From Minisyncoccota bacterium (GTDB lineage: Bacteria; Patescibacteriota; Minisyncoccia; Phycocordibacterales; UBA918): 64,000 nucleotides of DNA. A model generated the notes under the pieces. The model was not told the DNA's origin and ran no database searches. It worked only from the letters and a program-made list of their open reading frames with translations. Of the stretch, positions 2,684 to 58,767 are shown piece after piece; within the stretch, counting starts at the first letter, position 1, and each line of letters opens with the position of its first letter. The position numbers and the translations under genes are program-made. The stretch lies in assembly GCA_041688155.1 (NCBI GenBank), contig JBDNIW010000001.1, positions 7,319 to 71,318 on the forward strand, read 5' to 3'.

Positions 2684-3223
2684 CTAGTTAGCACTATCAG
2701 CGCCGGTGTAGACATTAGTGACGTCGTCTTGTTCTTCTAGTTTCTCGATAAACTCAGCTAGTATTTCGCCGGCCTCGTCGTCGAGTTCGACGGGAGTGTT
2801 TGGGGTATAGCCGTCGACTGATTTGGTAAACGCCCAAGTGGCTGAGCCAGGGGCACCTAGTTCAAGCCCTGCTTTAGAAAACACGTGCCGGATTTCTGGT
2901 GCGGTACGGTTGTTGTTGTCAGTGACCGCTTCAATCAGTAGAGGTACCCCTCCTGGGCCATAGCCTTCGTAGAGGACTTCTTCCATCGCACTCCCGCCCT
3001 CGCCTGAACCTTTGGCCAGGGCTCGTTCGATGGCGTCTTTAGGCATTGAGTCTTTTTTAGCCCGGTCAACTGCGGCGATGACGTTAGCTGAGTCAACCCG
3101 CCCACTAGCTTTTTTTACTTCCATCGTAATTAGACGGGAGTGCTTAGAAAACAGCTTGCTCCGCTGCTGGTCAGTCGCGCCTTTTTTATGTTTGATTTTT
3201 GACCACTTATTGTGTCCTGACAT
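2684..3223 (-). CDS. yebC: YebC/PmpR-family probable transcriptional regulator (compact form)
   Basis: MSGHNKWSKIKHKKGATD... and EGYGPGG motifs; the classic yebC-ruvC arrangement. It is shorter (179 aa) than canonical YebC (~240 aa); the middle domain is reduced. Confidence 0.75.
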   Translation of the reverse strand: MSGHNKWSKIKHKKGATDQQRSKLFSKHSRLITMEVKKASGRVDSANVIAAVDRAKKDSMPKDAIERALAKGSGEGGSAMEEVLYEGYGPGGVPLLIEAVTDNNNRTAPEIRHVFSKAGLELGAPGSATWAFTKSVDGYTPNTPVELDDEAGEILAEFIEKLEEQDDVTNVYTGADSAN

Positions 3224-3234
3224 ATATGGCTAGG

Positions 3235-4260
3235 TTAACCTACATTTTCTAAATGACTGTAGGCTTCGGGGCTGGCGGTTCGTCCGCGTGGAGTGCGTTC
3301 AATTAATCCATGACGGATGAGGTACGGCTCAATGACGTCTTCGATGGTGGATGCCTCCTCACCAGTAGCGGCGGCGATGGTGTTCAGTCCTACTGGTCCA
3401 CCATTGAACTTGTTGATGATGACATCAAGCACCGCCCGGTCAGGCGCACCAAGACCGAGCGAGTCAATCTCAAGTAGGGCAAAGGTTTGGTCGATAATGT
3501 CGTTGGTCAGCCCGGTGTTCTCAAGCTGGGCGAGATCACGACAGCGTTTGAGTAGGTAGTTCGCGGTGCGTGGCGTTGCTCGGCACCGACCGGCGATTTT
3601 ATTGATCACCTCTTTAGTGGGGTCCATCCCCAGCAAGTCAGCCGAGCGACCTAATATCTGTCCAATCTCATCGTCACTGTAGAACTCAAGCCGAAACGTT
3701 CCGCCAGAAAAGCGCGACCGTAGTGGGGCTGAGAGCAGTGAGATGCGCGTCGTCGCTGCCACCATGGTAAACGGCGGGAGTTCGAGTTGCACCGTCCGGG
3801 CGGATGGGCCTTTGCCGATGATGATATCGAGCACCCCTGACTCCATCGCCGGGTAGAGGACTTCCTCAATATTTTTACTTAAACGATGAATCTCGTCGAT
3901 AAACAGCACATCACCTGGTGCGAGGTTGGTGAGAATAGCCGCTAGGTCACCAACTTTCTCGATGGCGGGACCCGAGGTGGTTTTCATATTAGTACCCAGC
4001 GTCCTGGCAACTAGGTTTGATAGCGTCGTCTTTCCTAACCCTGGTGGGCCATAGAGTAGAATGTGCTCAGCCGCGTGTCCACGCTCTTTGGCAGCTGTCA
4101 GTAAGATGCGCAGGTTTTCCTTGATTTTGGCTTGGCCGATATACTCCTCCCAGGTTTTAGGACGCAACGTCCGGTCGAGGTTTTGTGCATCGTCTCGGGT
4201 GATTTTTGGGGCAGTAGCAGTCATGTCGTAAGTATACCAAAATATCAAATGCAGTGTCAC
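3235..4260 (-). CDS. ruvB: Holliday junction ATP-dependent DNA helicase RuvB
   Basis: Walker A LLYGPPGLGKTTL, AAA+ core and a winged-helix C-terminus; 341 aa. Confidence 0.9.
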   Translation of the reverse strand: MTLHLIFWYTYDMTATAPKITRDDAQNLDRTLRPKTWEEYIGQAKIKENLRILLTAAKERGHAAEHILLYGPPGLGKTTLSNLVARTLGTNMKTTSGPAIEKVGDLAAILTNLAPGDVLFIDEIHRLSKNIEEVLYPAMESGVLDIIIGKGPSARTVQLELPPFTMVAATTRISLLSAPLRSRFSGGTFRLEFYSDDEIGQILGRSADLLGMDPTKEVINKIAGRCRATPRTANYLLKRCRDLAQLENTGLTNDIIDQTFALLEIDSLGLGAPDRAVLDVIINKFNGGPVGLNTIAAATGEEASTIEDVIEPYLIRHGLIERTPRGRTASPEAYSHLENVG

Positions 4261-7610: not shown

Positions 7611-9992
7611 ATGGCTAAAAAAGAAACCCCGACGTTAGTTTTACTCGACGCTCACGCTATATTACACCGAGCGTATCACGCGCTGCCAGACTTTACGTCC
7701 CCAAACGGCGAACCAACCGGCGCGCTGTACGGCGTTACGACGATGCTACTCAAAATCATTGAGGATTTTAAGCCGCAATACATCGCCGCTTGTTACGACT
7801 TGCCAGAACCGACCTACCGTCACGACGCCTACGACGCCTACAAAGCTGGTCGGAGTAAAACTGACACAGATCTAGTCACCCAGATTATCCGAGCTCGGGA
7901 TATTTTTAACCACTTTGGGATTCCGATTTTTGAGAAAGTTGGGTTTGAGGCTGACGATCTGATTGGAACCATTGCCCACCTAACCAAAGAGACACCAGAG
8001 CTGCGAGTCGTGATTGCTTCAGGTGATATGGACACGTTGCAATGTGTCGACAAAAACCGGGTCGAAGTATTTACTCTCAAACGTGGCATCAACGATACAA
8101 TTATTTATGATGAAGCAGCGGTCAAAGCGCGGTTTGGGTTCGGCCCATCGATGGTCGTCGACTACAAAGGCCTACGTGGTGATGCGAGCGATAACATCCC
8201 GGGGATTCGCGGTATCGGAGAGAAAACCGCGACCACCCTCCTGACGACGTTTGGTACAATCGAACAAATCTATCAGAAACTAGAAGCCAAGGGTGGTGAA
8301 GATAGATTTATCACCGCAGGGATAACCAAACGCATCGTCGGTCTACTGCTCGACGGCAAAGAAGACGCCGAGTTTTCCAAAATGCTCGCAACCATTCGTA
8401 CAGACGCCATTGATTCATTTGACCTTGATTCTACTGAGTGGCGCGAGCATGCAGACATTGAAGGAATTCAAAACCTCTTTAGTGAATATGGATTCCGGAA
8501 CATGACTAGCCGGATTGAACGGTTGTTCAACGTGGTGCTGGTAGATACCGCCGCCGAAGCTGCCAAAATCGGTGATACAGAAATCAAGCAAGCCAGCATC
8601 CTACTCTGGCTACTTGAAAGTGAGCGAACCAACGCCAGTTACGAAGACATTGTCGACTACGGCCGGTCATTTTTGCAAACCAAAACTTGGGAAGAAACCG
8701 TGTCGGCGATGGAAGAAAAAGTACGAGCTGAAGGATTATGGGACTTGTATACCGACATCGAACTACCTCTGATTCCAGTGTTAGAAAACATGAAACAACA
8801 AGGAATTATTTTGGATACCGCATATCTCAAAACACTTTCTACTAAACTACACGTTGAACTAGTGGCACTCGAGACGTCCATCTACCAGCACGCTGGGGTC
8901 GAGTTCAACCTCAATTCACCCAAGCAAATGGGGGAAATCTTATTTGATACGCTCGAACTGAAACCAAAAAACGCCAAGAAAACTGGTGGTGGGCAGCGTA
9001 GCACCAAAGAATCAGAGCTAGAGAAATTACTGGACGAACACCCAATCATTGCTGATATCCTCCGGTACCGCGAACTCAAAAAACTTGTTTCCACCTACAT
9101 CGATAACTTGCCCGAGGTGGTCGGGCCCGACGGGCGCATCCACAGCACGCTCCTGCAAACCGGTACCTCAACCGGACGTATGGCGAGTAAAGAACCGAAC
9201 CTGCAGAACATTCCAATTCGTACCGAAGAAGGTCGGATGGTCCGGGGTGCGTTTGTAGCCGAGGTAGGATATCAGTTGGTAGCAATCGACTACTCACAGA
9301 TCGAGTTACGGATTGCGGCGATTATGTCAGAAGATTCTCAAATGATTGAGATTTTTAAGAAAGGAGAGGATGTTCACAGCGGAGTAGCGTCACGCGTGTT
9401 TGGGGTACCGCAGAGCGAGGTTACCGCAGACATGCGGCGCAAAGCCAAAGTCATTAACTTTGGGATTCTCTACGGCATGGGGGTCAACGCTTTACGGACT
9501 AACCTCGGCGCCGATACGCCGCGCGCCGAGGCTCAAGAATTCCTCAACGCGTATTTCAATACGTTCACCCGGTTGGCTGAATTCCTTGAAGAAACCAAAT
9601 CATTTGCCCGAGAAACTGGCTATACTCAAACTATGTTTGGCCGCCGCCGCCACTTCGCGGGGATCACCTCAGCCGTACCATTTATCCGCGCCCAAGCGGA
9701 ACGCATGGCCATCAACGCCCCGATCCAAGGCACCGGGGCTGATTGTATGCGAGTAGCCATGCGCCAGATTCATGAGTATATTGAGGGACGAAAAAAACCA
9801 GACGACGTTCGGATGTTACTCCAAGTCCACGACGAACTAGTGTTTGAAGTAAAAGACAGCGAGGTGGAAGCAGTTGTGCCAGAGTTGGTGACTATCATGG
9901 AAGCAGCATTGGAGGGGAGGGTCAGTCACGGCGTGCCACTGGTGGCTGATGTAAAAGTAGGGAAGAATTGGAACCAGATGCAGGGGATGTAG
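7611..9992 (+). CDS. polA: DNA polymerase I (5'-3' exonuclease plus polymerase; short Taq-like form)
   Basis: N-terminal FEN-like 5' nuclease motifs; polymerase motifs A (DYSQIELR), B (RRKAKVINFGILYG) and C (QVHDELVFE); 793 aa. Confidence 0.92.
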   Translation: MAKKETPTLVLLDAHAILHRAYHALPDFTSPNGEPTGALYGVTTMLLKIIEDFKPQYIAACYDLPEPTYRHDAYDAYKAGRSKTDTDLVTQIIRARDIFNHFGIPIFEKVGFEADDLIGTIAHLTKETPELRVVIASGDMDTLQCVDKNRVEVFTLKRGINDTIIYDEAAVKARFGFGPSMVVDYKGLRGDASDNIPGIRGIGEKTATTLLTTFGTIEQIYQKLEAKGGEDRFITAGITKRIVGLLLDGKEDAEFSKMLATIRTDAIDSFDLDSTEWREHADIEGIQNLFSEYGFRNMTSRIERLFNVVLVDTAAEAAKIGDTEIKQASILLWLLESERTNASYEDIVDYGRSFLQTKTWEETVSAMEEKVRAEGLWDLYTDIELPLIPVLENMKQQGIILDTAYLKTLSTKLHVELVALETSIYQHAGVEFNLNSPKQMGEILFDTLELKPKNAKKTGGGQRSTKESELEKLLDEHPIIADILRYRELKKLVSTYIDNLPEVVGPDGRIHSTLLQTGTSTGRMASKEPNLQNIPIRTEEGRMVRGAFVAEVGYQLVAIDYSQIELRIAAIMSEDSQMIEIFKKGEDVHSGVASRVFGVPQSEVTADMRRKAKVINFGILYGMGVNALRTNLGADTPRAEAQEFLNAYFNTFTRLAEFLEETKSFARETGYTQTMFGRRRHFAGITSAVPFIRAQAERMAINAPIQGTGADCMRVAMRQIHEYIEGRKKPDDVRMLLQVHDELVFEVKDSEVEAVVPELVTIMEAALEGRVSHGVPLVADVKVGKNWNQMQGM

Positions 9993-10003
9993 CCCCCCCC
10001 CCG

Positions 10004-10249
10004 TTATTTCGGGTGATTCACTAGCGCAATCACGATGTAACCAGGGTCAACAATATAAAAATAAAACCGGTAGCTTTTGTCGATTCGCGCTTGCCAGAGA
10101 TTTTCGGTGCCAGTGTACAGTTTGGTATTTAGAGACGGATGACGGAAATCTTGCAACAAATACCCAAACTGTTTGTCTGCTTTCTTCTGGATGTGCTGAG
10201 GCAATTTTTGGTATTGCTTGTCGGCTTGTTTAGTAAAATTAATCTCCAT
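10004..10249 (-). CDS. type II toxin, RelE/ParE superfamily
   Basis: 81 aa; KQYQKLPQHIQKK...LWQARIDKSYRFYFYIVDPGYIVIALVNHPK matches the RelE-fold pattern. It overlaps the upstream antitoxin gene by 11 nt. Confidence 0.6.
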   Translation of the reverse strand: MEINFTKQADKQYQKLPQHIQKKADKQFGYLLQDFRHPSLNTKLYTGTENLWQARIDKSYRFYFYIVDPGYIVIALVNHPK

Positions 10250-10508
10250 ACTTTTTGCGGAAGGCTGGTAGTTTTTTATGGAATTCTTCTATGCTGCCAA
10301 ATGTAATGTAGCGACCGTGTTTTATATCTTCACGACTCTCGCGAATAGCCTCAGCCAACTCAGGCGGCAGTGACACTTCCGGTTGCACAAAAAACCCACC
10401 ATCGCGCTGTTCAATCCGCAGGGTTTGCCCTTCTTCTAAATGCAGTGCATCTCGGAGTTTCTTGGGGAGGGTGAGGACGCCACGCTGTTGTAATTTAACT
10501 GTAGTCAT
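10239..10508 (-). CDS. AbrB/MazE (SpoVT-AbrB fold) antitoxin
   Basis: VKLQQRGVLTLPKKLRDALHLEEGQTL swapped-hairpin motif; 89 aa; immediately upstream of the RelE-like gene. Confidence 0.6.
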   Translation of the reverse strand: MTTVKLQQRGVLTLPKKLRDALHLEEGQTLRIEQRDGGFFVQPEVSLPPELAEAIRESREDIKHGRYITFGSIEEFHKKLPAFRKKYGD

Positions 10509-10598
10509 ATAGTAAATAATAGCAGAAATACTGAATTACTGCAATTACGTCAGGTCGCTATTATTTCTAATTATAGCGGCTTCGCGTACAATACCCCT

Positions 10599-11303
10599 AT
10601 GCTCAAACTCTATTTTGGAACTGACAGACAAAAAGTTCGTGATGCTGCAACTAACTTTTTGGAGTCACATATGTCATCTGACGGAACAGTGACTACCTTC
10701 GACGCTCAGTCGTTTGTCTCTGGGCAGATTGCTGATGCCCTTGGAGCTGCATCTCTCTTTGGGGGAGAGGAATGGTTTGTGATTGATACCCCAGCGGCTG
10801 ATTCCGATATGGCACAGGAAGTGACCAGCTCACTCAAAGAGATGAGTGAGTCACAAAATACGTTTCTGATTTTAGAGGGAGCACTGCTGGCTCCAGCCAA
10901 AAAATCGTATGCAAAGCATGCCGCCAGTAGTGAAGAATTCACTGCCGCCAAAAATGAGCGGTTCAACACCTTCGCGATGGCCGATGCCTTAGCACAGAAA
11001 GACCGGCGTCAGCTGTGGGTGCTGCTCCAAAACGCCAAGCGTGAAGGTTTGGCCGCCGAGGAAATCATCGGCATGTTGTGGTGGCAGCTCAAGGCCCTTC
11101 GATTGGCAGATGTCACCAGCAACGCCGCTCAAGCGGGGATGAAAGACTTTCCCTACAACAAAGCCAAACGATCATTAGTCAAATTCGCACCCGGTGAGGT
11201 GATCAAAAATTCCCACACCCTCCTCGAGTTGTATCACGACGGACACGCTGGGCTGCGTGATATTGATCTAGCGCTAGAGCAGTGGGTGTTAGGTGGGCGA
11301 TGA
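10599..11303 (+). CDS. holA: DNA polymerase III delta subunit (HolA), compact
   Basis: MLKLYFGTD...LFGGEEWFVIDTPAA pattern like the HolA N-terminal domain; 234 aa. Confidence 0.5.
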   Translation: MLKLYFGTDRQKVRDAATNFLESHMSSDGTVTTFDAQSFVSGQIADALGAASLFGGEEWFVIDTPAADSDMAQEVTSSLKEMSESQNTFLILEGALLAPAKKSYAKHAASSEEFTAAKNERFNTFAMADALAQKDRRQLWVLLQNAKREGLAAEEIIGMLWWQLKALRLADVTSNAAQAGMKDFPYNKAKRSLVKFAPGEVIKNSHTLLELYHDGHAGLRDIDLALEQWVLGGR

Positions 11304-12012
11304 TATAGTTAATCGTATGAAGAGACTCGCGCAAAAATTATTTACTGATCAACCAGGAAAAACTCATCACTTGGTGAACGATTTTTTTGCGCTGCTGACG
11401 ATTGTATCGATTGTGTCGTTGGTACTTGAAACGGTACCAGGGCTAGTAGCGTACGAGCGGACCTTTTTCATCATTGAGTGGGTCGCGGTGTCGTTCTTTA
11501 CCATCGAATACATCGGCCGGACGCTGGCCTCGAAACCAGTCTGGCGCTACCCAACCAGTTTCTTTGGGTACATTGACCTGATATCTATCCTGCCTACTTT
11601 TTTAGGGTTAGGAAACTTTACCTGGCTCAAGTCGGCCCGGGCGTTGCGAATCATCAGACTACTGCGGATGCTCCGGTTAGCAAAAGTTTTGCGTACTGGG
11701 GTGAGTGAAGACAGCATGGGCGTGTTGTCTTTAAACGTACTGATTTATTTTGTCGTACTGACGTTTGCGTTGTTGGTAACAGGCACTGCGATGTATTTGG
11801 TCGAGCCAACCACAGCCGCGTTTGTGAGTATTCCCGCTGGGATGTGGTGGTCGCTGAAAGTGTTCATGGCCGGGATTCCGGTGGTCGAGCCGGTGACGCA
11901 ACTGGGAGAATTTTTCTTCGTACTGACGCGGTTTGTGGGGTTGATGTTGTTGGGGTTGCTGATTGGAGTGGTGGGGAATGTGTTTCGGGGGTTGTTGGGA
12001 GGGAGGGGGTAA
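11293..12012 (+). CDS. ion-transport (voltage-sensor-containing) channel family protein
   Basis: S4-like segment RALRIIRLLRMLRLAKVLR with regularly spaced Arg, multiple TM helices and a pore-like region; 239 aa. Confidence 0.55.
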   Translation: MGDDIVNRMKRLAQKLFTDQPGKTHHLVNDFFALLTIVSIVSLVLETVPGLVAYERTFFIIEWVAVSFFTIEYIGRTLASKPVWRYPTSFFGYIDLISILPTFLGLGNFTWLKSARALRIIRLLRMLRLAKVLRTGVSEDSMGVLSLNVLIYFVVLTFALLVTGTAMYLVEPTTAAFVSIPAGMWWSLKVFMAGIPVVEPVTQLGEFFFVLTRFVGLMLLGLLIGVVGNVFRGLLGGRG

Positions 12013-12124: not shown

Positions 12125-12457
12125 CCTTCAAGGGGTCTCGGTCCTTACAGGACCAGTATACCTTTTGGATATATTTTCCTTTCAGGCAAATCTATCGCAA
12201 AAGCTTTTCGAGCCCTAAACGAAAGTCTCCCAGACTTTCGATTCAGGCGCACAAACAAAAAATCCCCACAGGGATTTTTTTGTTGTACGCCTTCAAGGGG
12301 TCTCTCTCGTTACACGAGCAGTATCCACCCTGGACGGTTTGTTCACATTCGCTCCAAACCGCCTCAGTGCGGCTTCGAGCCCTCCGTAAAGTCCCCCGGA
12401 CTTTACTTGAAGGCGCACAAACAAAAAATCCTCATAGGGATTCTTTTGTTGTGCGCC
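12125..12457. repeat. two tandem ~165-bp units downstream (in tRNA sense) of tRNA-Lys, each ending in a tRNA-3'-end mimic plus terminator-like hairpin
   Basis: Unit 1 is 12125..12289 and unit 2 is 12290..12457. Both start (plus strand) with ccttcaagggg, the reverse complement of the tRNA-Lys acceptor/T-stem 3' end. Both contain gcgcacaaacaaaaaatcc-N4-ggatt...gttgt.cgc hairpins and cgagccct..gtaaagtc..gacttt hairpins. Confidence 0.7.
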
Positions 12458-12524
12458 TTCAAGGGCTCGAACCTTGGACCATCTCCTTAAAAGGGAGCCG
12501 CTCTACCATCTGAGCTAAAGGCGC
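12452..12524 (-). tRNA. tRNA-Lys (anticodon TTT)
   Basis: Hand-folded cloverleaf: acceptor GCGCCTT/AAGGCGC, D-arm GCTCAGATGGTAGAGC, anticodon loop CTTTTAA, T-arm CAAGGTTCGAGCCCTTG. CCA is not encoded. Confidence 0.85.
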
Positions 12525-12617: not shown

Positions 12618-13085
12618 ATGAAATATATCATCCTTGAAAATATCCGCAGCGCCTACAACGTCGGGGCTATTTTCCGGACTGCTGATGGAGCTGGGGTGAG
12701 CAAAATATACTTGGTTGGGTATACTCCTAGCCCGATTGATCGGTTTGGTCGAGTACAGCCCGAGATTCTTAAAACGTCATTGGGAGCGAGTGCAGAGATC
12801 GAGTGGGAACACGTATCTATCAGCAAAGAGCTGATTATTCGACTACAGTCAGCTGGATGCGATGTAGTTGCGGTAGAGCAAGACCCGCGCTCAATCACAA
12901 TCGTTGATTTTGTTGCTCCAGCACACGTGGCGTACATCATGGGTAATGAAGTGGTGGGGGTGGAATCAGACACACTGCAGTTGTGCGACACAATCATTGA
13001 TCTCCCGATGCATGGACACAAAGAATCGCTGAATGTTTCGGTCGCTGCTGGTATAGTTATGTATCATGACGTCCTTTATAGGTAA
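12618..13085 (+). CDS. SpoU/TrmH-family RNA 2'-O-methyltransferase (TrmL-like size)
   Basis: IRSAYNVGAIFRTADGAGV... SPOUT motifs; 155 aa. Confidence 0.7.
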   Translation: MKYIILENIRSAYNVGAIFRTADGAGVSKIYLVGYTPSPIDRFGRVQPEILKTSLGASAEIEWEHVSISKELIIRLQSAGCDVVAVEQDPRSITIVDFVAPAHVAYIMGNEVVGVESDTLQLCDTIIDLPMHGHKESLNVSVAAGIVMYHDVLYR

Positions 13086-14568
13086 TTGGTTAGTGCAGTG
13101 GTTCTTTGCCGGCTTACTGCTTGGAGCTGGGTTTGTGTGGCCGGTGTTTTGGTGGTTGGGATTAGTTGGGGTTACGCGTTTGATTTATTTGGCGATACAT
13201 GAGCCATCATGGCGCCGGGTGTTGATCGGGTCGCTACTGGCGTGGACCAGTAAGTCAGCCTTGTCTTTGTCGTGGTTTTGGAGCGTGTTTCCGATTGCCT
13301 GGCTGACGGTTGGTTCTGATTGGTTGCAATTACTATTGATTTTGGTGTGGTGGCTGACGGCCGCACTGTGGCTGGGTGCGGGCGGAGTGATGTTTGGCTC
13401 GGCAGTCAAGTTGCTACAGTTGTACGTACCAGCGGCCTGGTTGTATGCCGGTTTACCACTCTTGTGGCTGGCAGCTGAGTTGTTTGGGTCGTTAGTTTTT
13501 TCTATAGTAACTATTGGGTCTGGCGGGTCTGTTACAACTGCGTTTAGTTTTGGGTACATTGGGTATTTACTGGTTGGGCACGACTGGTTGGTGCAGGTTG
13601 CGCAATGGGGTGGAGTATACGCGTTAGGGTTACTTTTGGTATCACTTAGTTCATTGACCATTTGGCTCATTGTAAAGCGGCAAGTAGCTATAAGGTACGT
13701 CGCACTGAGTCTTGGATTATTGGTCTGCACCAGTTTAATTCCCTGGCCACATAATGAACTCACCGGTCAAACCAATACACATACAGTTGTGATTATCGAC
13801 ACAACTTTTACTCCTCAGGATTTAGCCGACGCTGACAGTGCCGCTATGCGTCAAGCAGCTCAAGAAGCAGCGATGCAGGCTGCGTTGGTTCTTGAACCCG
13901 ACTACGTGTTACTTCCCGAAGATGCACGATATTTTAACCAAGTTCAAGCGCCCAGATTGACCCAAGCACAATTCAAATTTAGAACAAACAATCCAGAAGT
14001 AGTGATAGTCGATAGTGGGCGAGTGACAGTGGATGAGCGGGTTGTTTTGCAGTCTTTTGTTTATAATGGTGCGAGTCACACTGTCAATCAGTCACAAAAA
14101 CGCTATTTAGTGCCACAGGGAGAATTTATGCCTTCACTTTATGAAGCTGGACTCAAACTGTTTGGGCACAGTGAAGTGATTGATGCTATTGCAGATACAC
14201 TTGACTACACCGTCGGGACTGACACTAGTCAAGCTGATTTCGCCAGTAGTTCACCGGGGGTATTATTTTGTTTTGAAAGTGTGTCACCGTGGGGAGTGCG
14301 TGCAATTATGCAAGAGCGAGGGAATGTACCGTTTATTGCCCACCCGATTTCGCACGCCTGGTTTAATGAACCACACATATTGTGGCAACAGTTGGACAGC
14401 ATGTTGCGAGTACAAGCAATCTGGAATCAGCAGTACATTGTGAGTGCCGGAAACCATGTGCGGGGATATGCTGTGACTCCAGCTGGCACAATCGTGTATC
14501 CGCAGTCGGTAGCCAGTGGTGATAATTGGCACGTCGGTGTTCTCACCGTACCCAAGGTAGATCGTTAG
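13066..14568 (+). CDS. lnt: apolipoprotein N-acyltransferase-like (Lnt) membrane protein
   Basis: W-rich polytopic N-terminal domain followed by a CN-hydrolase-like domain. LLPEDA resembles the Lnt WPESA region, QKRYLVPQGEFMP resembles K..HLVPFGE.VP, and a CFE cysteine resembles the CYE catalytic Cys. Confidence 0.5.
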   Translation: MTSFIGNWLVQWFFAGLLLGAGFVWPVFWWLGLVGVTRLIYLAIHEPSWRRVLIGSLLAWTSKSALSLSWFWSVFPIAWLTVGSDWLQLLLILVWWLTAALWLGAGGVMFGSAVKLLQLYVPAAWLYAGLPLLWLAAELFGSLVFSIVTIGSGGSVTTAFSFGYIGYLLVGHDWLVQVAQWGGVYALGLLLVSLSSLTIWLIVKRQVAIRYVALSLGLLVCTSLIPWPHNELTGQTNTHTVVIIDTTFTPQDLADADSAAMRQAAQEAAMQAALVLEPDYVLLPEDARYFNQVQAPRLTQAQFKFRTNNPEVVIVDSGRVTVDERVVLQSFVYNGASHTVNQSQKRYLVPQGEFMPSLYEAGLKLFGHSEVIDAIADTLDYTVGTDTSQADFASSSPGVLFCFESVSPWGVRAIMQERGNVPFIAHPISHAWFNEPHILWQQLDSMLRVQAIWNQQYIVSAGNHVRGYAVTPAGTIVYPQSVASGDNWHVGVLTVPKVDR

Positions 14569-16863: not shown

Positions 16864-17436
16864 TTATGGTAATTTTTGTAAGGCTTTGGTGATAATGTCA
16901 TTGACTGAGTTTTCGTCCGTGTTGAGTGATTGCACTGTCGCCCGCGCAGACGCGGCATCGTATCCAAGGGCCACCAGGGCATCAATCGCATCGGTTTGTT
17001 TGGCGTCAAGTGGACTCGATGGGGTGACGTGTTCGGCCAATTCACCGAGTTTCTCATGTAGATGGTTCACCACGTTTTCGCAGGTTTTCTTGCCGATGCC
17101 AGACAACTTTTGGAGTTGGGCTGGTTCCTTGTTGGCAATCTGCTCAATCAACAGAGTAGGGCTAGCTTGGCACATGATGGCTAGGGCGGATTTGGGGCCG
17201 ACTTTAGGCACACTCAGTAGCAACTCGAACAATCGCCGCTCGACACTAGTAGTAAACCCGTATAGATCGAGCGCGGTTTCCCGCACTGCCAGGTACGTAT
17301 GCATCATCGCCTCGGCCCCCTGAGTGTGAATCGTAGTGTGGGTTGGGGTATATATCAAGTACCCAACACCATTGACGTTGAGGATCAGGGCATTGTCTTC
17401 TATGTGGGTAATGGTCCCGGTCAGCTGGCGTATCAT
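16864..17436 (-). CDS. ruvA: Holliday junction DNA helicase RuvA
   Basis: MIRQLTGTITHIEDNALILNVNGVGYLIYTP OB-fold N-terminus and helix-hairpin-helix motifs; 190 aa. Confidence 0.85.
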   Translation of the reverse strand: MIRQLTGTITHIEDNALILNVNGVGYLIYTPTHTTIHTQGAEAMMHTYLAVRETALDLYGFTTSVERRLFELLLSVPKVGPKSALAIMCQASPTLLIEQIANKEPAQLQKLSGIGKKTCENVVNHLHEKLGELAEHVTPSSPLDAKQTDAIDALVALGYDAASARATVQSLNTDENSVNDIITKALQKLP

Positions 17437-17845: not shown

Positions 17846-18048
17846 TACTCTGACTTCTGACGAAGTCCGTTTGTGCGCAGGGAGAGGGATTCGGTCAGAA
17901 ACAAATTTCTTTGCAATTTTTCATGATACTGACTCGCTTAGTCGTACTCGCCTACGCTCCGTGCGACATTACTGCGTCTCCCGAATCCCTTACCCTCCCG
18001 CACGAAATACGACAAAACCTAAAGACACGCTTTAGGTTTTGATATTTG

Positions 18049-18133
18049 CGGAGAGAGAGGGATTCGAACCCTCGGTACCTTGCGGTACGCTGGTTTTCAA
18101 AACCAGTGCAATCGACCACTCTGCCATCTCTCC
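18049..18133 (-). tRNA. tRNA-Ser (anticodon TGA), class II with a long variable arm
   Basis: Acceptor GGAGAGA/TCTCTCC, anticodon stem CTGGT/ACCAG with loop TTTGAAA, long variable arm, T-arm AGGGTTCGAATCCCT. CCA is not encoded. Confidence 0.8.
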
Positions 18134-18196: not shown

Positions 18197-18646
18197 TTAT
18201 TTTTTCATATAGTGTTCGCTGGTATGGCAATTTGGACATAATAACTCTAGATTATTTAAATTATTATTATCCCGGTTACGATCGATATGATGCACTTGCA
18301 GTATTTCGTATACATTATATTGGCAACGCTGACATAGGCTGCCTCGTTCTTTCATTAATCTCTTTTTTAGGATTCGACTAGTCACCACTTTATCTTTTGA
18401 CGGTCTGCGAGTTTTATATTTTATTCCAATACGACTTTTGTTAGCGCAGCTACGACTACAGGTCTGTTTATTGGCACCTGACAACATCGGTGTTTTGCAT
18501 ACTAAACAAGGTATTTCTTGCCGACACGAAATGCCGTAACAGGCTTGGCTACAGTAGGCTTTGCCATTGTTCTGTATCAGAACTCCTGGTCGGCGATAGA
18601 TTGGTGTCTGACATATAATACAAGTTGTGTTTGGATTACGTTCCAT
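18197..18646 (-). CDS. HNH endonuclease with an N-terminal Cys-rich zinc-ribbon region
   Basis: HNH motif QVHHIDRNRDNNNLNNLELLCPNCH plus several CxxC pairs. The gene is clearly more AT-rich than its neighbours. Confidence 0.75.
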   Translation of the reverse strand: MERNPNTTCIICQTPIYRRPGVLIQNNGKAYCSQACYGISCRQEIPCLVCKTPMLSGANKQTCSRSCANKSRIGIKYKTRRPSKDKVVTSRILKKRLMKERGSLCQRCQYNVYEILQVHHIDRNRDNNNLNNLELLCPNCHTSEHYMKK

Positions 18647-19210: not shown

Positions 19211-19297
19211 ATCAAATAGGGCCAGTGTCGACTAGTGCGTATTACAATGTAGAGGTTTGGTAATATATCTTTTTATGCTATATTCTTTGCCGTAAAG

Positions 19298-19369
19298 GCT
19301 CCCATAGTTTAACGGATAAAACACCGGTTTGCGGAATCGGAACTCCAGGTTCGATTCCTGGTGGGAGCA
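19298..19369 (+). tRNA. tRNA with anticodon GCG (Arg) by hand fold
   Basis: Acceptor GCTCCCA/TGGGAGC, D-arm GTTT..AAAC, anticodon stem CCGGT/ATCGG with loop TTGCGGA, T-arm CCAGGTTCGATTCCTGG. The GCG anticodon is unusual for bacteria, so the isotype call is tentative. Confidence 0.6.
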
Positions 19370-19370
19370 C

Positions 19371-19417
19371 GAGTACAAAAAAGAGCACACGCTAGTGTGC
19401 CTTTTTTGTTCGTACTC
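19371..19417 (+). terminator. rho-independent terminator after the tRNA
   Basis: gagtacaaaaaagagcacac-gcta-gtgtgccttttttgttcgtactc extended palindrome with a T-run. Confidence 0.65.
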
Positions 19418-19595
19418 CCAAGAAAGCGGAGCTTTCGCCCAGGAATCCAAGAGATGGAATATAGCGCACGCAGCGAAGCGAGTACGATATGACATCTGTA
19501 CCGTTCATGTAATGAAAGATAGCCTAGTGGGAGTACAGGCAAGGATTTCAGCTGAATTCGCGCCGCTTTTGTACCCATGCTAAACTAGCTACACT

Positions 19596-20351
19596 ATGCG
19601 TATACTTGGGATTGATTTTGGGACTAAAAAAGTGGGGTTGGCGTTAACCGATGAGTCAGGATCGATGGCGTTTCCTCACAGTGTCATCCCAAACGACGCG
19701 GTGTTGCTTTCGACGGTCGTTGACCTGATTGCCGAGCAGCAGGTCACAGCAATCGTTATGGGGCACTCGCTTAATCTCGATGGTACTCCCAACGCGGTAC
19801 AGGCCCACATTGAAATGTTTATCGCTGACCTGACTGTACGGGTACCAATTCCGATTCATCTGGAGCCAGAGCAGCTCACCAGTAGGCAGGCCGCGACTAC
19901 AACTGGCCGTAATACGCAAACTGACGCAGCTGCTGCCGCTTTGATACTAGAAAGTTATCTCGCTAAACAAAAAAATATGCCCGTGCAATTAGCACTAGAC
20001 GAAGCGGTGGTGAAGATATCAAATGAAATCTCGTTTGAGCAATTCTCTGCGGTAGAAATTAGACTGGGGACGATCATAGCCGTAGAAATAGTCGAAGCTG
20101 CGGACAAACTCCTCAAACTGACAGTTGACCTGGGTGAACCTGAACCGCGGCAAATCGTGTCAGGCATCCGCGAGTACTACCCAGATGCACAAGTGTTGGT
20201 CGGGCTGCAGTGTCCGTTTATTGCCAACCTAGCACCGCGCCAGATCAAAGGCTTTGTCAGTCAGGGTATGATCCTCGCTGGTGCAGTTGACGACACGTTT
20301 GCGTTACTCAACCCATCGACACACCTGCCAGCTGGTACTCGTCTCTATTAA
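19596..20351 (+). CDS. ruvX: fusion protein: RuvX/YqgF (pre-16S rRNA nuclease / Holliday-junction-resolvase-like) with a C-terminal tRNA-binding OB domain (CsaA/Trbp111/Myf-like)
   Basis: N-terminal MRILGIDFGTKKVGLA, GHSLNLDGT and DAAAAALILESY match RuvX motifs. The C-terminal IRLGTIIAVEIVEAADKLLKLTVDLGEPEPRQIVSGIREYY...GFVSQGMILA matches the tRNA_bind (EMAP/CsaA) domain. 251 aa. Confidence 0.7.
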   Translation: MRILGIDFGTKKVGLALTDESGSMAFPHSVIPNDAVLLSTVVDLIAEQQVTAIVMGHSLNLDGTPNAVQAHIEMFIADLTVRVPIPIHLEPEQLTSRQAATTTGRNTQTDAAAAALILESYLAKQKNMPVQLALDEAVVKISNEISFEQFSAVEIRLGTIIAVEIVEAADKLLKLTVDLGEPEPRQIVSGIREYYPDAQVLVGLQCPFIANLAPRQIKGFVSQGMILAGAVDDTFALLNPSTHLPAGTRLY

Positions 20352-20352
20352 T

Positions 20353-20964
20353 ATGAATGAACCATCAGTTCTTGATACCCAGGTTGAGAAAGTGCTCAAT
20401 ACCAGGACAGTCACCCGGGCGCAGTCACTGATGCAATCTCGCTCGGGTTTGTGGCTGATTGTCATCGTTTCTTTTATTGAGTCAGCGTTACCTCTGCCAA
20501 TCATTACCGACCCTTTTATGGTGGCCGGTATATTAGCCAACCGCAGCCGGGCGGCTTTGATTGTGGGTATTACGCTAGTCACGTCGGTGCTAGGTGGGGT
20601 GGTCGCGTTTATCATGGCTCGCTACTTTTTTAATCTACTTGAAGCCATGATGACTAGCAACATGCTGGCTCAGTTTCAAACTTTGATTGCGATGGATTCT
20701 TCCAACACCCTAGTGGTAACACTCGTTGGTGCCGTTACTCCAATTCCGTACACCGTTACAGCTTGGGTGGTTGCGGTTGGGGAGGGTAGCCTAATACTGT
20801 TTATCGTCGCGTCAATTATTGGTCGGGGGATTAGGTATAGCATCGTTGGAGTGTGTACGTACTGGTTTGGTTTGCGTGCGCTGACCTATGCCCGTCGCTC
20901 GCTGGGAGTTACCTCAGTGGTGTTAGCTGGGCTAGTGGTCGCCTACGTCTGGTACAAACTGTGA
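20353..20964 (+). CDS. DedA/YqaA-family (VTT domain) membrane protein
   Basis: LWLIVIVSFIESALPLPIITDPFMVAGIL matches the DedA core. The start is moved to the Met at 20353, which follows the stop of the upstream gene. Confidence 0.55.
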   Translation: MNEPSVLDTQVEKVLNTRTVTRAQSLMQSRSGLWLIVIVSFIESALPLPIITDPFMVAGILANRSRAALIVGITLVTSVLGGVVAFIMARYFFNLLEAMMTSNMLAQFQTLIAMDSSNTLVVTLVGAVTPIPYTVTAWVVAVGEGSLILFIVASIIGRGIRYSIVGVCTYWFGLRALTYARRSLGVTSVVLAGLVVAYVWYKL

Positions 20965-24035: not shown

Positions 24036-24107
24036 GTGTCCCCACTAGGAGTCGAACCCAGATCAAAAGGATAGAAGCCTCTCGTTTTATCCATTAAACT
24101 ATAGGGA
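24036..24107 (-). tRNA. tRNA-Arg (anticodon TCT)
   Basis: Acceptor GTCCCTA/TGGGGAC, D-arm GTTT..AAAC, anticodon stem AGAGG/CCTTT with loop CTTCTAT, T-arm CTGGGTTCGACTCCTAG. Confidence 0.8.
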
Positions 24108-24460
24108 CAAATAACGGTAGCGTTATTTGTACTGAGTACAATACCAGAAATTAAGCAGAGAGAAAGCAGAAGAAGCGCGCTCTGATACAAGTATCAATAT
24201 GAGCGCGCTTTAGGGGCGTTTTCTCAGTTGGTTAAAACATAGCCCAATCAGTGAAAACGACAGTGTCTGGTTCTGGTGGCAGCGGTGGGTCTGCTGGATC
24301 CGGGACGGAACTTGGAGCTGCGGGTTGCTCTACCTCGACTGCGGGTGGTTTTGGCTGTTCCATAACAGCGCTCCTGTGCTTGGCGCTACGTTGTACGTAG
24401 CATACTCGTAAAATACGTTTGCAGACGCACCTCGTCAATTGAGTTATAAACAGTTGATTA

Positions 24461-25527: not shown

Positions 25528-25747
25528 GTGCGCGCTCTGAGACCCGGTCACCTTCGCATCAATATTTCGTTCGACCTACGGTCTCCAAACTATTGTGCTA
25601 CGCGACCCCGACACTCGAATCGTCCTCCCTGCGGTCCGGGCGATATACTCGCTCTTTTCGAGTCTCTACGGAAGTAACTTTGGTTACTTCCTCAGCGCGC
25701 ACGAATAAAAATTGCCCACACTGCGTGTGGGCTAATTTTTATACTCG
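25528..25747. repeat. element E4: tRNA-Val-3'-end mimic plus conserved core plus terminator hairpin, directly abutting tRNA-Val
   Basis: gtgcgcgctctgagacccgg, then the core, then the hairpin cgaataaaaattgcccacac-tgcg-tgtgggctaatttttatactcg. Confidence 0.8.
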
Positions 25748-25820
25748 TGCGCGCTGAGAGACTCGAACTCCCGACATCTTCAGTGTAAATGAAGCGCTCT
25801 ACCAACTGAGCTAAGCGCGC
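25748..25820 (-). tRNA. tRNA-Val (anticodon TAC)
   Basis: Acceptor GCGCGCT/AGCGCGC, D-arm AGCTCAGTTGGTAGAGC, anticodon stem CTTCA/TGAAG with loop TTTACAC, T-arm TCGGGAGTTCGAGTCTCTCA. Confidence 0.85.
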
Positions 25821-28766: not shown

Positions 28767-28848
28767 GTCCACGTGGAGAAATTGGTAAACTCGTACGCTT
28801 GAGGGGTGTATGCCTAACAGCTTGCTGGTTCAAGTCCAGTCGTGGACA
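28767..28848 (+). tRNA. tRNA-Leu (anticodon GAG), class II
   Basis: Acceptor GTCCACG/CGTGGAC, anticodon stem TACGC/GTGTA with loop TTGAGGG, long variable arm, T-arm CTGGTTCAAGTCCAG. It is followed by the terminator hairpin 28852..28893 (agccatacgaaaaccggcg-taa-ccgccggtttttgtatggct). Confidence 0.8.
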
Positions 28849-28930
28849 CAAAGCCATACGAAAACCGGCGTAACCGCCGGTTTTTGTATGGCTGGTTACT
28901 AGATACTTTATAATTAGGTACAATAGCTCC

Positions 28931-47340: not shown

Positions 47341-49008
47341 ATGCAATTCTTTAAAACCCACAAAATAAAATTTGTAATTATTCTCATATTGGCTGGTGGC
47401 GGATATTGGTATACCCAGTCTGATCGGACAGAAGAACCAACGGTAGCAGCGGTAGTGGTTGAACAAGTGGGGCGGGGTGATGTGACTTCAGGGATTGAGA
47501 CGACTGGTGAGATTGTGGCCGCTCAGAAACTTAATCTGGACGTGTATAAACAGATTTCTCGGATTGATCTGGTGAACGTTATTAATGGCGGTACGGTCGC
47601 TGCTGGTGATGTGCTGTTTACCTTTGATGCGAGTAACGCGCTGGTTGCGGTTGAGTCATCTAGAGTAGGGGTGCTGGGGGCAGAGCTCACCCTTGAGAAT
47701 CAACGGGCAAATGTGACCGATCCAAATAGCACCATCCGAACGCTTGAAAACGATATCGTTGCATTAGAAGCGGACATCGCGCAAGCTGGGGTAGATAAAA
47801 ATCGGGCGTATCGGGCGTACCTCAACGCGAACTTGGAACCCGTACCAGGTACGAGTAACACAGTAGATAAAGTGAAGCCAACCATATCTGGTTTGTACAC
47901 AGCGACCAACGAGGGGGAATACCGAGTGAGTGTGTATCGGTCTGGAGCAGACTCTGGTTACTCATATCGAGTTGGTGGGCTGGAGTCTAATACGGAATCT
48001 GTGTTACTAGGAGTACCATCTTTGCTTGGACAATCAGGACTTGAGATTACCTTCCCTTTATCAATAGCCACTGGTGATGCTTGGATTGTTGCGGTTCCAA
48101 ACATCCACGCTCCAGAGTATGTTGCTACGCTTGAATTATACGAGGAGACAATTACTAGTCTAGAGCTACTGGTGGTTGAGGCTGGAGTCAGTATCCAAAA
48201 CAAGCAGCAAGAAATAGAAGATATCTTGCAAACGGACACGACTCAGTTCCGTGATCTTGGGGTGTCCCAAGCCCAAGCTGAATTAGCTCAAGCGCGAGAG
48301 CAGCTTTCACAGAACTTTGATGTTGTGCAGGAGCAAAGTATAGTCGCACCGTTTTCTGGCACGGTTGAGGGCATGGAAAACGTAGTAGTTGGGGCGTCCC
48401 CAACTCGTGATACCAACGACCCTATCACCCTTGGTACCCTTATTTCTGATGATTTTTTAGTGACGTTTTCACTCAGTGCTGTGGATGTGGCAAAGGTCTC
48501 AGTGGGGCAGTTGGTGTTGGTGAACATTACTTCCTTTCCAGATATACCAACCCTTGAGGCTACTATCAACGAGATTAGTTCACTACCAAATAGTGAAGGG
48601 GTAGCGCAGTATGCGGTGCAAGCGTTAATCAACTTACCACCAGAAGCAACAGTCCAGCTACGTGAGGGATTATTGGCTGATATCGAGATTGTGCAAGAGG
48701 TGGCCGTAGATGTAGTGCGAGTCCCTAGTGCAGCGATAGTCTACGAAAACAGACAAGCACAAGTCCGCGTGCTGACCGACCTTACCCCAGAGCAACAAGA
48801 GACAATCACCACTTTGAATATTATTCGAACGATGTCTGATCAGTCGGTTGGGTTTATGGTCGATGTTGAGATTGGTGTAGCGGGCGCATTTTATAGTGAA
48901 ATCATTGGTGGTCTAACGGAGGGGCAATACGTAGTGGTTGGTGATACTGATGATACTGAGTCAGCCCTCAGTGAATCGAGGCGAGGTGGTCGGCCAAATA
49001 ATGATTAA
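47341..49008 (+). CDS. efflux-pump periplasmic adaptor (HlyD/MacA-like membrane fusion protein), long form
   Basis: N-terminal TM anchor, coiled-coil and beta-barrel/lipoyl-like segments; first gene of a three-gene ABC exporter operon; 555 aa. Confidence 0.6.
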   Translation: MQFFKTHKIKFVIILILAGGGYWYTQSDRTEEPTVAAVVVEQVGRGDVTSGIETTGEIVAAQKLNLDVYKQISRIDLVNVINGGTVAAGDVLFTFDASNALVAVESSRVGVLGAELTLENQRANVTDPNSTIRTLENDIVALEADIAQAGVDKNRAYRAYLNANLEPVPGTSNTVDKVKPTISGLYTATNEGEYRVSVYRSGADSGYSYRVGGLESNTESVLLGVPSLLGQSGLEITFPLSIATGDAWIVAVPNIHAPEYVATLELYEETITSLELLVVEAGVSIQNKQQEIEDILQTDTTQFRDLGVSQAQAELAQAREQLSQNFDVVQEQSIVAPFSGTVEGMENVVVGASPTRDTNDPITLGTLISDDFLVTFSLSAVDVAKVSVGQLVLVNITSFPDIPTLEATINEISSLPNSEGVAQYAVQALINLPPEATVQLREGLLADIEIVQEVAVDVVRVPSAAIVYENRQAQVRVLTDLTPEQQETITTLNIIRTMSDQSVGFMVDVEIGVAGAFYSEIIGGLTEGQYVVVGDTDDTESALSESRRGGRPNND

Positions 49009-58540: not shown

Positions 58541-58694
58541 ATTATAACAGTCCGAACGTCTCGGTAGGGTGAGAAAGTGCGGGGCATTTTCGCAAGACCT
58601 TGCCTGGTATTTTGAAAAAGGAAAAACAGTGACGAGGTGTACGGTACCCGTGAGGTTTCAAAAATAATCCTACTAAATCTACTTTAAATCGCTG

Positions 58695-58767
58695 GGCGGC
58701 TACCGGGAATTGAACCCGAATTTCTAGTACCACAAACTAGCGTAATAACCATTATACAATAGCCGCC
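58695..58767 (-). tRNA. tRNA-His (anticodon GTG) with genome-encoded G-1
   Basis: Extra 5' G pairing with C73 (8-bp acceptor GGCGGCTA/TAGCCGCC), anticodon stem CTAGT/ACTAG with loop TTGTGGT, T-arm TCGGGTTCAATTCCCGG. Confidence 0.8.

Follow-up and report, generated by a model that had tools for sequence, protein, structure and literature searches.

Does the joining of a nuclease to a tRNA-binding domain in one polypeptide tell where the nuclease works, or have two neighbouring genes merely merged? The question is raised by a 64,000-nucleotide stretch of DNA (the window in what follows) from a Parcubacteria-group (Patescibacteria) bacterium, in which a single gene at 19596..20351 on the forward strand encodes RuvX/YqgF fused to an OB domain of the type known from the tRNA-binding protein Trbp111 and from the C-terminus of methionyl-tRNA synthetase (MetRS). 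RuvX/YqgF is widely conserved in bacteria and essential in several species. Its cellular role is disputed, the proposals being Holliday-junction resolvase, nuclease of the pre-16S rRNA 5' end, transcription antitermination factor and general 5'-3' RNase (PMC9601230). Here we show that the gene is a lineage-specific in-frame fusion of two neighbours, ruvX and a stand-alone Trbp111-like gene, trbp. It represents an uncharacterized architecture of two known families that is present in public databases under automatic names only. We found no description of a RuvX-tRNA_bind fusion or of a ruvX-trbp pair in the literature, in agreement with a preliminary description of the locus, made from the sequence alone, whose author was aware of no characterized example. 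The fusion hints at, without proving, a link of RuvX to tRNA 3' ends, and there are also clear signs that it may be incidental.

Two separately folded modules in one chain

The gene is a single open reading frame (ORF) that begins with ATG and runs for 251 codons to a TAA stop (756 nt), with no internal stop codons. Its product contains the motifs named in the preliminary description, DFGTKKVGLA (residues 7-16), GHSLNLDGT (56-64) and ESY (119-121), as well as the C-terminal string quoted there. When the translation was searched against Pfam, both families scored above their gathering scores within the one frame: PF03652 (RuvX) matched residues 1-123 with 89.8 bits against 29.2 (E=2.5e-25), and PF01588 (tRNA_bind) matched residues 155-249 with 83.3 bits against 27 (E=1.3e-23), profile positions 1-96 being fully covered. 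The N-terminal half also passed the cutoff of the NCBIfam model TIGR00250 RNAse_H_YqgF (52.4 versus 43.25). Thus, the proposed union of RuvX with a C-terminal tRNA_bind OB domain in one intact protein of 251 amino acids holds.

Comparisons with known structures gave the same division. PDB sequence matches of the N-terminal half were to YqgF (1vhx and 1nu0, E ~1e-7), those of the C-terminal half to MetRS C-terminal domains and Trbp111 (residues 7-110; E=5e-22 to 5e-18). The AlphaFold2 model, computed with 99 sequences, had a mean per-residue confidence (pLDDT) of 87.9, with confident domains at residues 1-127 and 145-250, values mostly above 90 in the N-terminal domain, and a disordered stretch between them (residues 131-138, pLDDT below 50). 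Foldseek aligned the N-terminal half with the YqgF structures 1vhx, 7ess, 7w89 and 1nu0 at template modelling (TM) scores of 0.70-0.84, and the OB half with complete Trbp111/MetRS-C/CsaA chains (8vtz, 5h34, 1mkh) at TM 0.88-0.94 and a root-mean-square deviation of 1.1-1.9 A over 107-111 columns; no solved chain among these structure matches spanned both halves. The RuvX half is modelled as an RNase H-like fold of five strands and three helices. We accordingly delimit an RNase H-fold nuclease domain at residues 1-123 (19596..19964, +), whose last helix extends to about residue 127; a flexible, clade-variable linker of ~17 residues at 128-144 (19977..20027, +); and a Trbp111/MetRS-C-type tRNA_bind OB module at 145-250 (20028..20345, +), which includes the N- and C-terminal dimerization segments. 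The preliminary description had therefore named the right family for the N-terminal part and drawn it too long: RuvX occupies about 125 residues, not 140, and is followed by the disordered linker.

Although the OB half matched MetRS C-terminal models best, its score stayed below the cutoff of TIGR00399 metG_C_term (104.9 versus 116.65) as it did for the tRNA-binding protein PRK10089 (53.5 versus 117) and CsaA TIGR02222 (39.5 versus 119.65). By sequence it is thus classed as a PF01588 superfamily member that falls in none of the curated equivalogs tested. Only the last ~117 positions of MetRS models were matched (108.9 bits versus 598), and neither tRNA-synt_1g nor the RuvC family PF02075 gave a Pfam match. 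Tex and Spt6, according to Aravind, Makarova and Koonin in 2000 and to Tex structures, reportedly join a YqgF-homology domain with an S1 OB-fold RNA-binding domain in one chain and so set a precedent for this kind of combination. They are large multidomain proteins (>700 amino acids) that contain HhH as well as S1 domains, and in them the YqgF domain is presumed to lack catalytic activity. The window protein, in contrast, has 251 residues and an intact triad, and S1, HhH and Tex domains were not detected in it by Pfam at E up to 1. It is neither a MetRS nor a RuvC, nor is it of the Tex type.

Could a sequencing or assembly error, such as a lost stop or a frameshift, have joined two genes? Most relatives have separate genes a few bases apart, so a single error could mimic a fusion. 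A search of 5.8 billion proteins, however, returned 694 matches, and about 110 of the best 120 clusters (36-91% identity, 228-305 amino acids) carried both Pfam domains; more than 100 clusters with both are 242-305 amino acids long. Their sources are named Paceibacteria, Parcubacteria or Patescibacteria, and automatic annotation has labelled them 'Holliday junction resolvase RuvX', 'transcription antitermination factor YqgF', 'tRNA-binding protein' or 'MetRS beta subunit'. Several of the fused genes lie on contigs of 0.3-1.05 Mb, and some clusters recur on 22-67 contigs. In the nearest relative (P0001; locus L081), represented on three contigs from different samples, an ORF of the identical length of 756 nt is 91% identical in amino acids and 88% in nucleotides, contains no indel and has the same neighbours as in the window. 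Moreover, the window's clade is fused throughout (~45 clusters and locus L001, spanning ~60-91% identity), and the ~17 residues of the window linker have no counterpart of a stop codon plus spacer. The artificial fusion against which the preliminary description had warned was therefore not found, and we give an artefact next to no chance.

Between the window and L081, the ratio of nonsynonymous to synonymous substitution rates (dN/dS) was 0.07 in the RuvX domain and 0.07 in the OB domain, as opposed to ~1.5 in the linker (residues 125-146), indicating that the halves are kept by selection and that the linker is a free tether. The product thus consists of two separately folded, selectively kept modules on a disordered tether of ~17 residues. 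Of this in-frame single-chain anatomy, and of its origin from two ancestral neighbour genes, we are highly confident.

Origin from a pair of neighbouring genes

To place the fusion among its relatives, we scanned one genome per GTDB species, which gave at least 574 confirmed relatives, and examined the best 80 loci (1.18 Mb); the window makes 81. Six of these contain the fused ORF (the window, L001, L008, L009, L010 and L022), so that a survey of the kind proposed in the preliminary description recovered the same fusion in related genomes. A further 71 carry a split same-strand pair, ruvX (~125-150 amino acids) followed by a stand-alone Trbp-like gene, mostly of 107-140 amino acids. On the same strand, ruvX is therefore followed by trbp in 77 of the 81 loci. 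The gap, taken in 70 split pairs, spans -23 to +231 nt (median ~11 nt); 39 pairs are spaced by 0-20 nt and ten overlap. In the complete chromosome CP060229.1 (L044), ruvX (9971-10387) and trbp (10384-10719) share an ATGA stop/start overlap and are followed by dedA (10723-11337). These genes are orthologous to the two halves of the window gene, stand in the same order and have the same dedA and pilMNO flanks, the difference being that L044 makes two polypeptides and the window one, with a linker. No second tRNA_bind or RuvX copy was found in the related loci. Rather than being an isolated invention, the fusion consolidates a conserved ruvX-trbp pair that has been fused repeatedly.

How the two genes merged can be read from the junctions. 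Comparison with 23 split loci showed that genomes that are sisters to the window's clade have TAA, 1-10 nt and ATG between the two genes, and M128 of the fusion protein (19977-19979) aligns with the start codon of the stand-alone trbp in split relatives. The fusion arose when the TAA stop was lost together with a few nucleotides of spacer. In some sister genomes Trbp begins with ~25 additional residues of low complexity, which are similar to the linker of the fusion. A neighbour-joining tree was made from 120 fusions and 70 split pairs, the latter concatenated (190 sequences in all); it required 12 or more switches of state, fused or split, and its root was split. The window belongs to a large all-fused clade whose nearest neighbours are split. 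From one fused clade to another the linkers vary in both length and sequence and are non-homologous. The split state is thus both ancestral and the majority state among relatives, and the locus shows how the packed genomes of the Candidate Phyla Radiation (CPR; Patescibacteria) make multidomain proteins from operon neighbours.

The frame of trbp relative to that of ruvX was the same in 32 of the 70 split loci, +1 in 24 and +2 in 14. The mild surplus of in-frame pairs probably reflects the ranking by tblastn, in which such a pair is scored as a single segment. We rejected readthrough of the stop codon and an alternative code, which the 32 in-frame pairs might have suggested: all three stops are used (TAA in 50 pairs, TAG in 12, TGA in 8), an ATG follows each of them, and some spacers hold more than one stop (L002).

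RuvX, the OB module and tRNA 3' ends

The ultimate question is whether the OB module has anything to do with what RuvX cuts. The YqgF triad combines two carboxylates, one in beta-1 and one in alpha-3, with a glutamate that ends beta-5 (PMC9601230). The corresponding residues of the window protein are D7 (codon 19614..19616, +), invariant in 39 and in 99 aligned fusion proteins; E92 (19869..19871, +), at the C-terminal end of a strand modelled at residues 87-91, invariant in the 39 and at least 90% conserved in the 99; and D110 (19923..19925, +), at the start of a helix modelled at residues 109-127 and invariant in both sets. Besides E92, E90 is conserved as well. The three-carboxylate site (D7, E92, D110) is thus intact, and nuclease function is predicted. 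The protein shares this site and the RNase H-like fold with the stand-alone E. coli YqgF, B. subtilis YrrK (1vhx), M. tuberculosis RuvX (7ess) and D. radiodurans YqgF (7w89). Known RuvX/YqgF proteins are, however, single-domain proteins of ~130-170 amino acids, whereas the window protein adds a tethered C-terminal OB domain through which it probably dimerizes.

For the OB half, a co-crystal structure of Trbp111 with tRNA published in 2024 provides the reference. The Trbp111 OB captures only the single-stranded 3'-terminal C75-A76 and not the tRNA elbow, using a CA pocket formed by K33, K73-P74-R75, I77, F78, S82 and M85, in which K33 takes part in C75 recognition (PMC11286949). Mutants of R75, S82, M85 and K33 are impaired in binding, alanine substitution of P74 has little effect, and the protein is a very stable dimer via residues 1-15 and 90-111 (PMC11286949). 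The equivalent of K33 in the window protein is K171 (codon 20106..20108, +), at least 90% conserved in the 39 fusion proteins and in a further alignment. The C75-A76 pocket corresponds to the L45-loop P214-R215-Q-I217-K218-G-F-V-S222-Q-G-M225 (20235..20270, +), as judged from conservation and from the residue roles in Trbp111 (PMC11286949). In the fusion-protein alignments R215, S222 and M225, the equivalents of R75, S82 and M85, are invariant, and P214, the equivalent of P74, is at least 90% conserved; I217 stands for I77, and the position of F78 is K218 here and an arginine in Arc1p. Within the dimer-interface segments, conservation among the 99 fusion proteins reaches at least 90% at I145, F150, P240 and T248 and is complete at G247. 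Given that both the CA pocket and the dimer segments are conserved, we infer that the OB module still binds CA-3' ends and still dimerizes. The full OB fold, the dimer segments and the CA-pocket equivalents are common to this module, Trbp111 of A. aeolicus (1pyb, 8vtz), E. coli YgjH and the MetRS C-terminal domain; what sets the window OB apart is the change of F78 to K218 and its place on a nuclease, instead of being free or on an aminoacyl-tRNA synthetase. The preliminary description had suggested that the OB domain may target the nuclease to a structured RNA. As a Trbp111-type OB captures single-stranded C75-A76, any targeting would instead be to free CCA-3' ends (PMC11286949).

How, then, might the two halves work together? 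The OB halves would hold the protein as a homodimer with two RuvX domains per dimer and would anchor it to free CCA-3' ends, for example those of mature tRNA or tmRNA. Such anchoring would concentrate the nuclease at the acceptor end, the meeting place of the 5' and 3' termini, and in split relatives both proteins would be produced in coupled amounts from the adjacent genes. None of the seven tRNA genes in the window encodes the 3' CCA, which means that CA-3' ends exist only after 3' processing and CCA addition. That the OB module tethers or directs the RuvX nuclease to CCA-3' ends is a tentative reading to which we assign slightly less than an even chance. Unlikely, in our judgement, is the more specific proposal that RuvX and the Trbp OB, fused or as a coupled pair, form a CCA-end-guided nuclease, in which the dimeric OB holds the 3'-CCA of a tRNA or tmRNA and presents the adjacent 5' end or acceptor region to RuvX, which would trim 5' leaders or take part in the quality control of tRNA. 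Were that proposal true, tRNA-type RNAs would be a physiological substrate class of RuvX/YqgF, at least in Parcubacteria. In any case, the recurrent fusion with a CCA-gripping domain yields the testable hypothesis that RuvX acts at or near tRNA-type ends, and the window protein is a natural single-chain construct for testing it.

In MetRS, Arc1p and AIMP1 an appended PF01588 domain serves substrate delivery. Bacterial MetRS, PheRS beta, the human TyrRS C-terminus, Arc1p and AIMP1 share with the window protein the design of a flexibly attached PF01588 OB that captures tRNA, and in characterized aminoacylation enzymes and cofactors the appended OB delivers tRNA via a flexible tether (PMC11286949). 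The tether model follows the logic of this same OB domain, which supplies MetRS and other synthetases with tRNA in cis, and the flexible linker of the window protein resembles that of the tRNA-binding domains appended to synthetases. The partner of the OB acts in aminoacylation in those systems, whereas here it is a nuclease. We know of no nuclease partner described for an OB of the Trbp/EMAPII type.

In favour of a functional coupling are the adjacency of ruvX and trbp in nearly all loci, their tight spacing, the ~12 fusion or fission events and the age of the fused clades, as well as the action of either partner on RNA. Alternatively, neighbours may have fused neutrally, with RuvX working in RNA processing (e.g. 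at the pre-16S 5' end) and Trbp as a general chaperone of tRNA 3' ends or as a cofactor of synthetases (a detached 'MetRS beta subunit'), each independently and without a new mechanism. With only a stop and a few bases between the genes in streamlined genomes, as in the sister spacers described above, stop loss fuses them readily. Several results point this way and weigh against a tethering role. AlphaFold2 showed no interdomain interface in the window protein (predicted TM score, pTM, 0.51) or in an independently fused protein with a linker of nine residues (pTM 0.53), although an OB protein guiding RuvX in split relatives would need one. Nor was covariation of the halves seen: the mirror-tree correlation of RuvX with OB (r=0.45) was the lowest of six pairs in a test that is weak for domains so short, and with PilM and PilO controlled for its partial r was 0.01, whereas PilM-PilO kept 0.44. 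The linker evolves freely, letting each half carry on. The whole region, comprising tRNA-Ser(UGA), ruvX, trbp, dedA, pilM, pilN and pilO, is syntenic among relatives, which makes the ruvX-trbp adjacency alone weak evidence. In four of the 81 loci (L060, L069, L072 and L080), ruvX stands without an adjacent OB gene, the neighbour having been lost in four lineages, and the ancestral, majority state is split. In a profile search of 1.84 billion representative proteins (50% identity), full-length fusions made up only 17 of the best 150 (246-391 bits), followed by a sharp drop to single-domain RuvX or Trbp at 182 bits or less. The best match of the OB half to MetRS C-terminal models likewise accords with a synthetase cofactor. 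Finally, we found three divergent fusions of RuvX with DedA/VTT (P0196, P0200 and P0208; 322-345 amino acids), each a singleton cluster; their 40-41% mutual identity across the junction indicates that they are real and conserved, and they show that ruvX also fuses with a neighbour without evident functional connection. These lineages also have fusions of Pterin_4a with tRNA_bind and of PilM with PilN. The RuvX-DedA fusions warn that 'Rosetta stone' links in these lineages are not to be taken at face value, and, together with the missing interdomain contact and covariation, they leave the targeting of the nuclease by the OB domain, suggested in the preliminary description, unproven.

Neutral fusion, in turn, does not sit easily with the ~12 fusion or fission events of ruvX and trbp when compared with the equally tight next junction: dedA directly follows trbp or the fusion gene in 31 loci at a median gap of 3 nt, and none of these 31 junctions is fused. 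The fused clades are old and stable, with both halves under strong constraint, and PF01588 domains on aminoacylation enzymes and cofactors serve substrate delivery (PMC11286949). Obligate 1:1 expression with a low-abundance nuclease would also be an ill fit for a bulk tRNA chaperone. We regard neutral fusion as a substantial possibility, somewhat below an even chance; it would make the gene a case of ordinary genome streamlining. As for the synthetase itself, Trbp would count as a detached 'beta subunit' if the MetRS of these organisms were without its C-terminal OB domain. The window has no MetRS gene, and none was found in the 1.18 Mb of related loci by tblastn with an approximate E. coli MetG sequence or by a scan for KMSKS/HxGH motifs.

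A further alternative to tethering at CCA-3' ends is that the OB serves mainly as a dimerizer, making RuvX a dimeric resolvase of Holliday junctions or branched DNA, as reported for mycobacterial RuvX. The Trbp111 homodimer is robust and its dimer segments are conserved here; resolvase activity is on record for YqgF/RuvX of M. tuberculosis and of H. pylori, and YqgF forms dimers in crystals of the M. tuberculosis and B. subtilis proteins (PMC9601230). Also, ruvA lies 2.2 kb upstream of the fusion. The window, however, encodes canonical RuvC (2202-2681, -; PF02075, E=7.9e-33) along with RuvB and RuvA, so that a replacement resolvase would be needless, as would be, for a pure dimerizer, the invariant residues that contact RNA 3'-CA. 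The YqgF of D. radiodurans is a 5'-3' RNase that depends on Mn2+ and shows no resolvase activity, and that of E. coli acts in 70S ribosomes, where it processes the pre-16S rRNA 5' end (PMC9601230). Reports on the E. coli protein conflict: it was described as lacking resolvase activity, though one study found Holliday-junction cleavage. We consider the dimerizer explanation quite improbable. Since RuvA, RuvB and RuvC provide the organism with a standard resolvasome, an RNA role is likelier than Holliday-junction resolution, and the fusion protein would thus work on RNA.

Genomic neighbourhood

The gene directly downstream of the fusion encodes a DedA/VTT-family membrane protein (20353..20964, +) and starts 1 nt after the fusion stop; its PF09335 match (E=3.4e-6) is below the gathering score. 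A dedA gene occupies the same downstream position in L044, L002 and L081, and it is the gene downstream of ruvX when trbp is absent; in the RuvX-DedA fusions RuvX would be membrane-tethered. Other fusions were seen in this group. PilM and PilN are fused in one ORF of 539-541 amino acids in three related loci. Elsewhere in close relatives (P0190, P0250 and P0258), the OB domain occurs as Pterin_4a plus tRNA_bind (194 amino acids, 5 contigs including one of 681 kb), in a 551-amino-acid protein with three tRNA_bind stretches, and behind an N-terminal YtxH-like region (sub-threshold in Pfam).

Upstream, ARAGORN called tRNA-Ser(UGA) at 18048..18133 (-) and, together with Rfam, tRNA-Arg(GCG) at 19298..19370 (+), 225 nt before the fusion. 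A GC-rich hairpin with a T-run, terminator-like and readable on both strands, follows tRNA-Arg(GCG) directly (19385-19400), and a promoter-like site precedes it (19257-19284). In a promoter and terminator scan, site counts did not exceed those of shuffled controls, the hairpin after tRNA-Arg being the only element seen. The fusion gene probably has its own promoter in 19400-19595. According to ARAGORN calls in the window and 52 loci, tRNA-Ser(UGA) lies in most relatives divergently and immediately upstream of ruvX. In the window an HNH endonuclease gene (18197-18646, -) is located between tRNA-Ser(UGA) and a DUF5673 membrane-protein gene, as it is in L081. As tRNA-Ser abuts ruvX directly in most relatives, the block of HNH, DUF5673 and tRNA-Arg(GCG) looks like an insertion in the window's clade.

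An Rfam scan of the window found tRNAs only, and neither RNase P RNA nor rRNA. The seven tRNA genes lie at 12451-12524, 18048-18133, 19298-19370, 24036-24108, 25747-25820, 28767-28849 and 58694-58766, and the set of Lys, Arg(GCG), Ser(UGA), Arg(UCU), Val, Leu and His recurs around ruvX in many relatives in broadly the same order. In two loci (L005, 7-80; L060, 4172-4245) ARAGORN called a 'tRNA-Stop' with anticodon UUA, which could be suppressor-like or miscalled.

The resolvasome genes are divided between two places. On the minus strand, ruvC (2202-2681), yebC (2684-3223) and ruvB (3235-4260) form a cluster, and ruvA (16864-17436, -) lies 12.6 kb away beside a Mur-ligase gene and divergent from rpsT (S20). 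Some source labels of related loci appear doubtful. L035 (JBLHQB010000019.1) is deposited as Patiriisocius sp., a flavobacterium, yet has a Parcubacteria-type ruvX-trbp-pil locus, and many loci labelled 'uncultured Candidatus Saccharibacteria bacterium' sit among Nomurabacteria and Kaiserbacteria relatives, so that mis-binning or generic labelling is probable. Two long ORFs of the window, 13066-14568 (+) with 500 and 47341-49008 (+) with 555 amino acids, matched no Pfam family at E up to 1e-5. Another ORF, at 51120-53363 (+), encodes a protein of 747 amino acids with six DUF285 repeats and a C-terminal peptidoglycan-binding domain, and is likely a surface protein.

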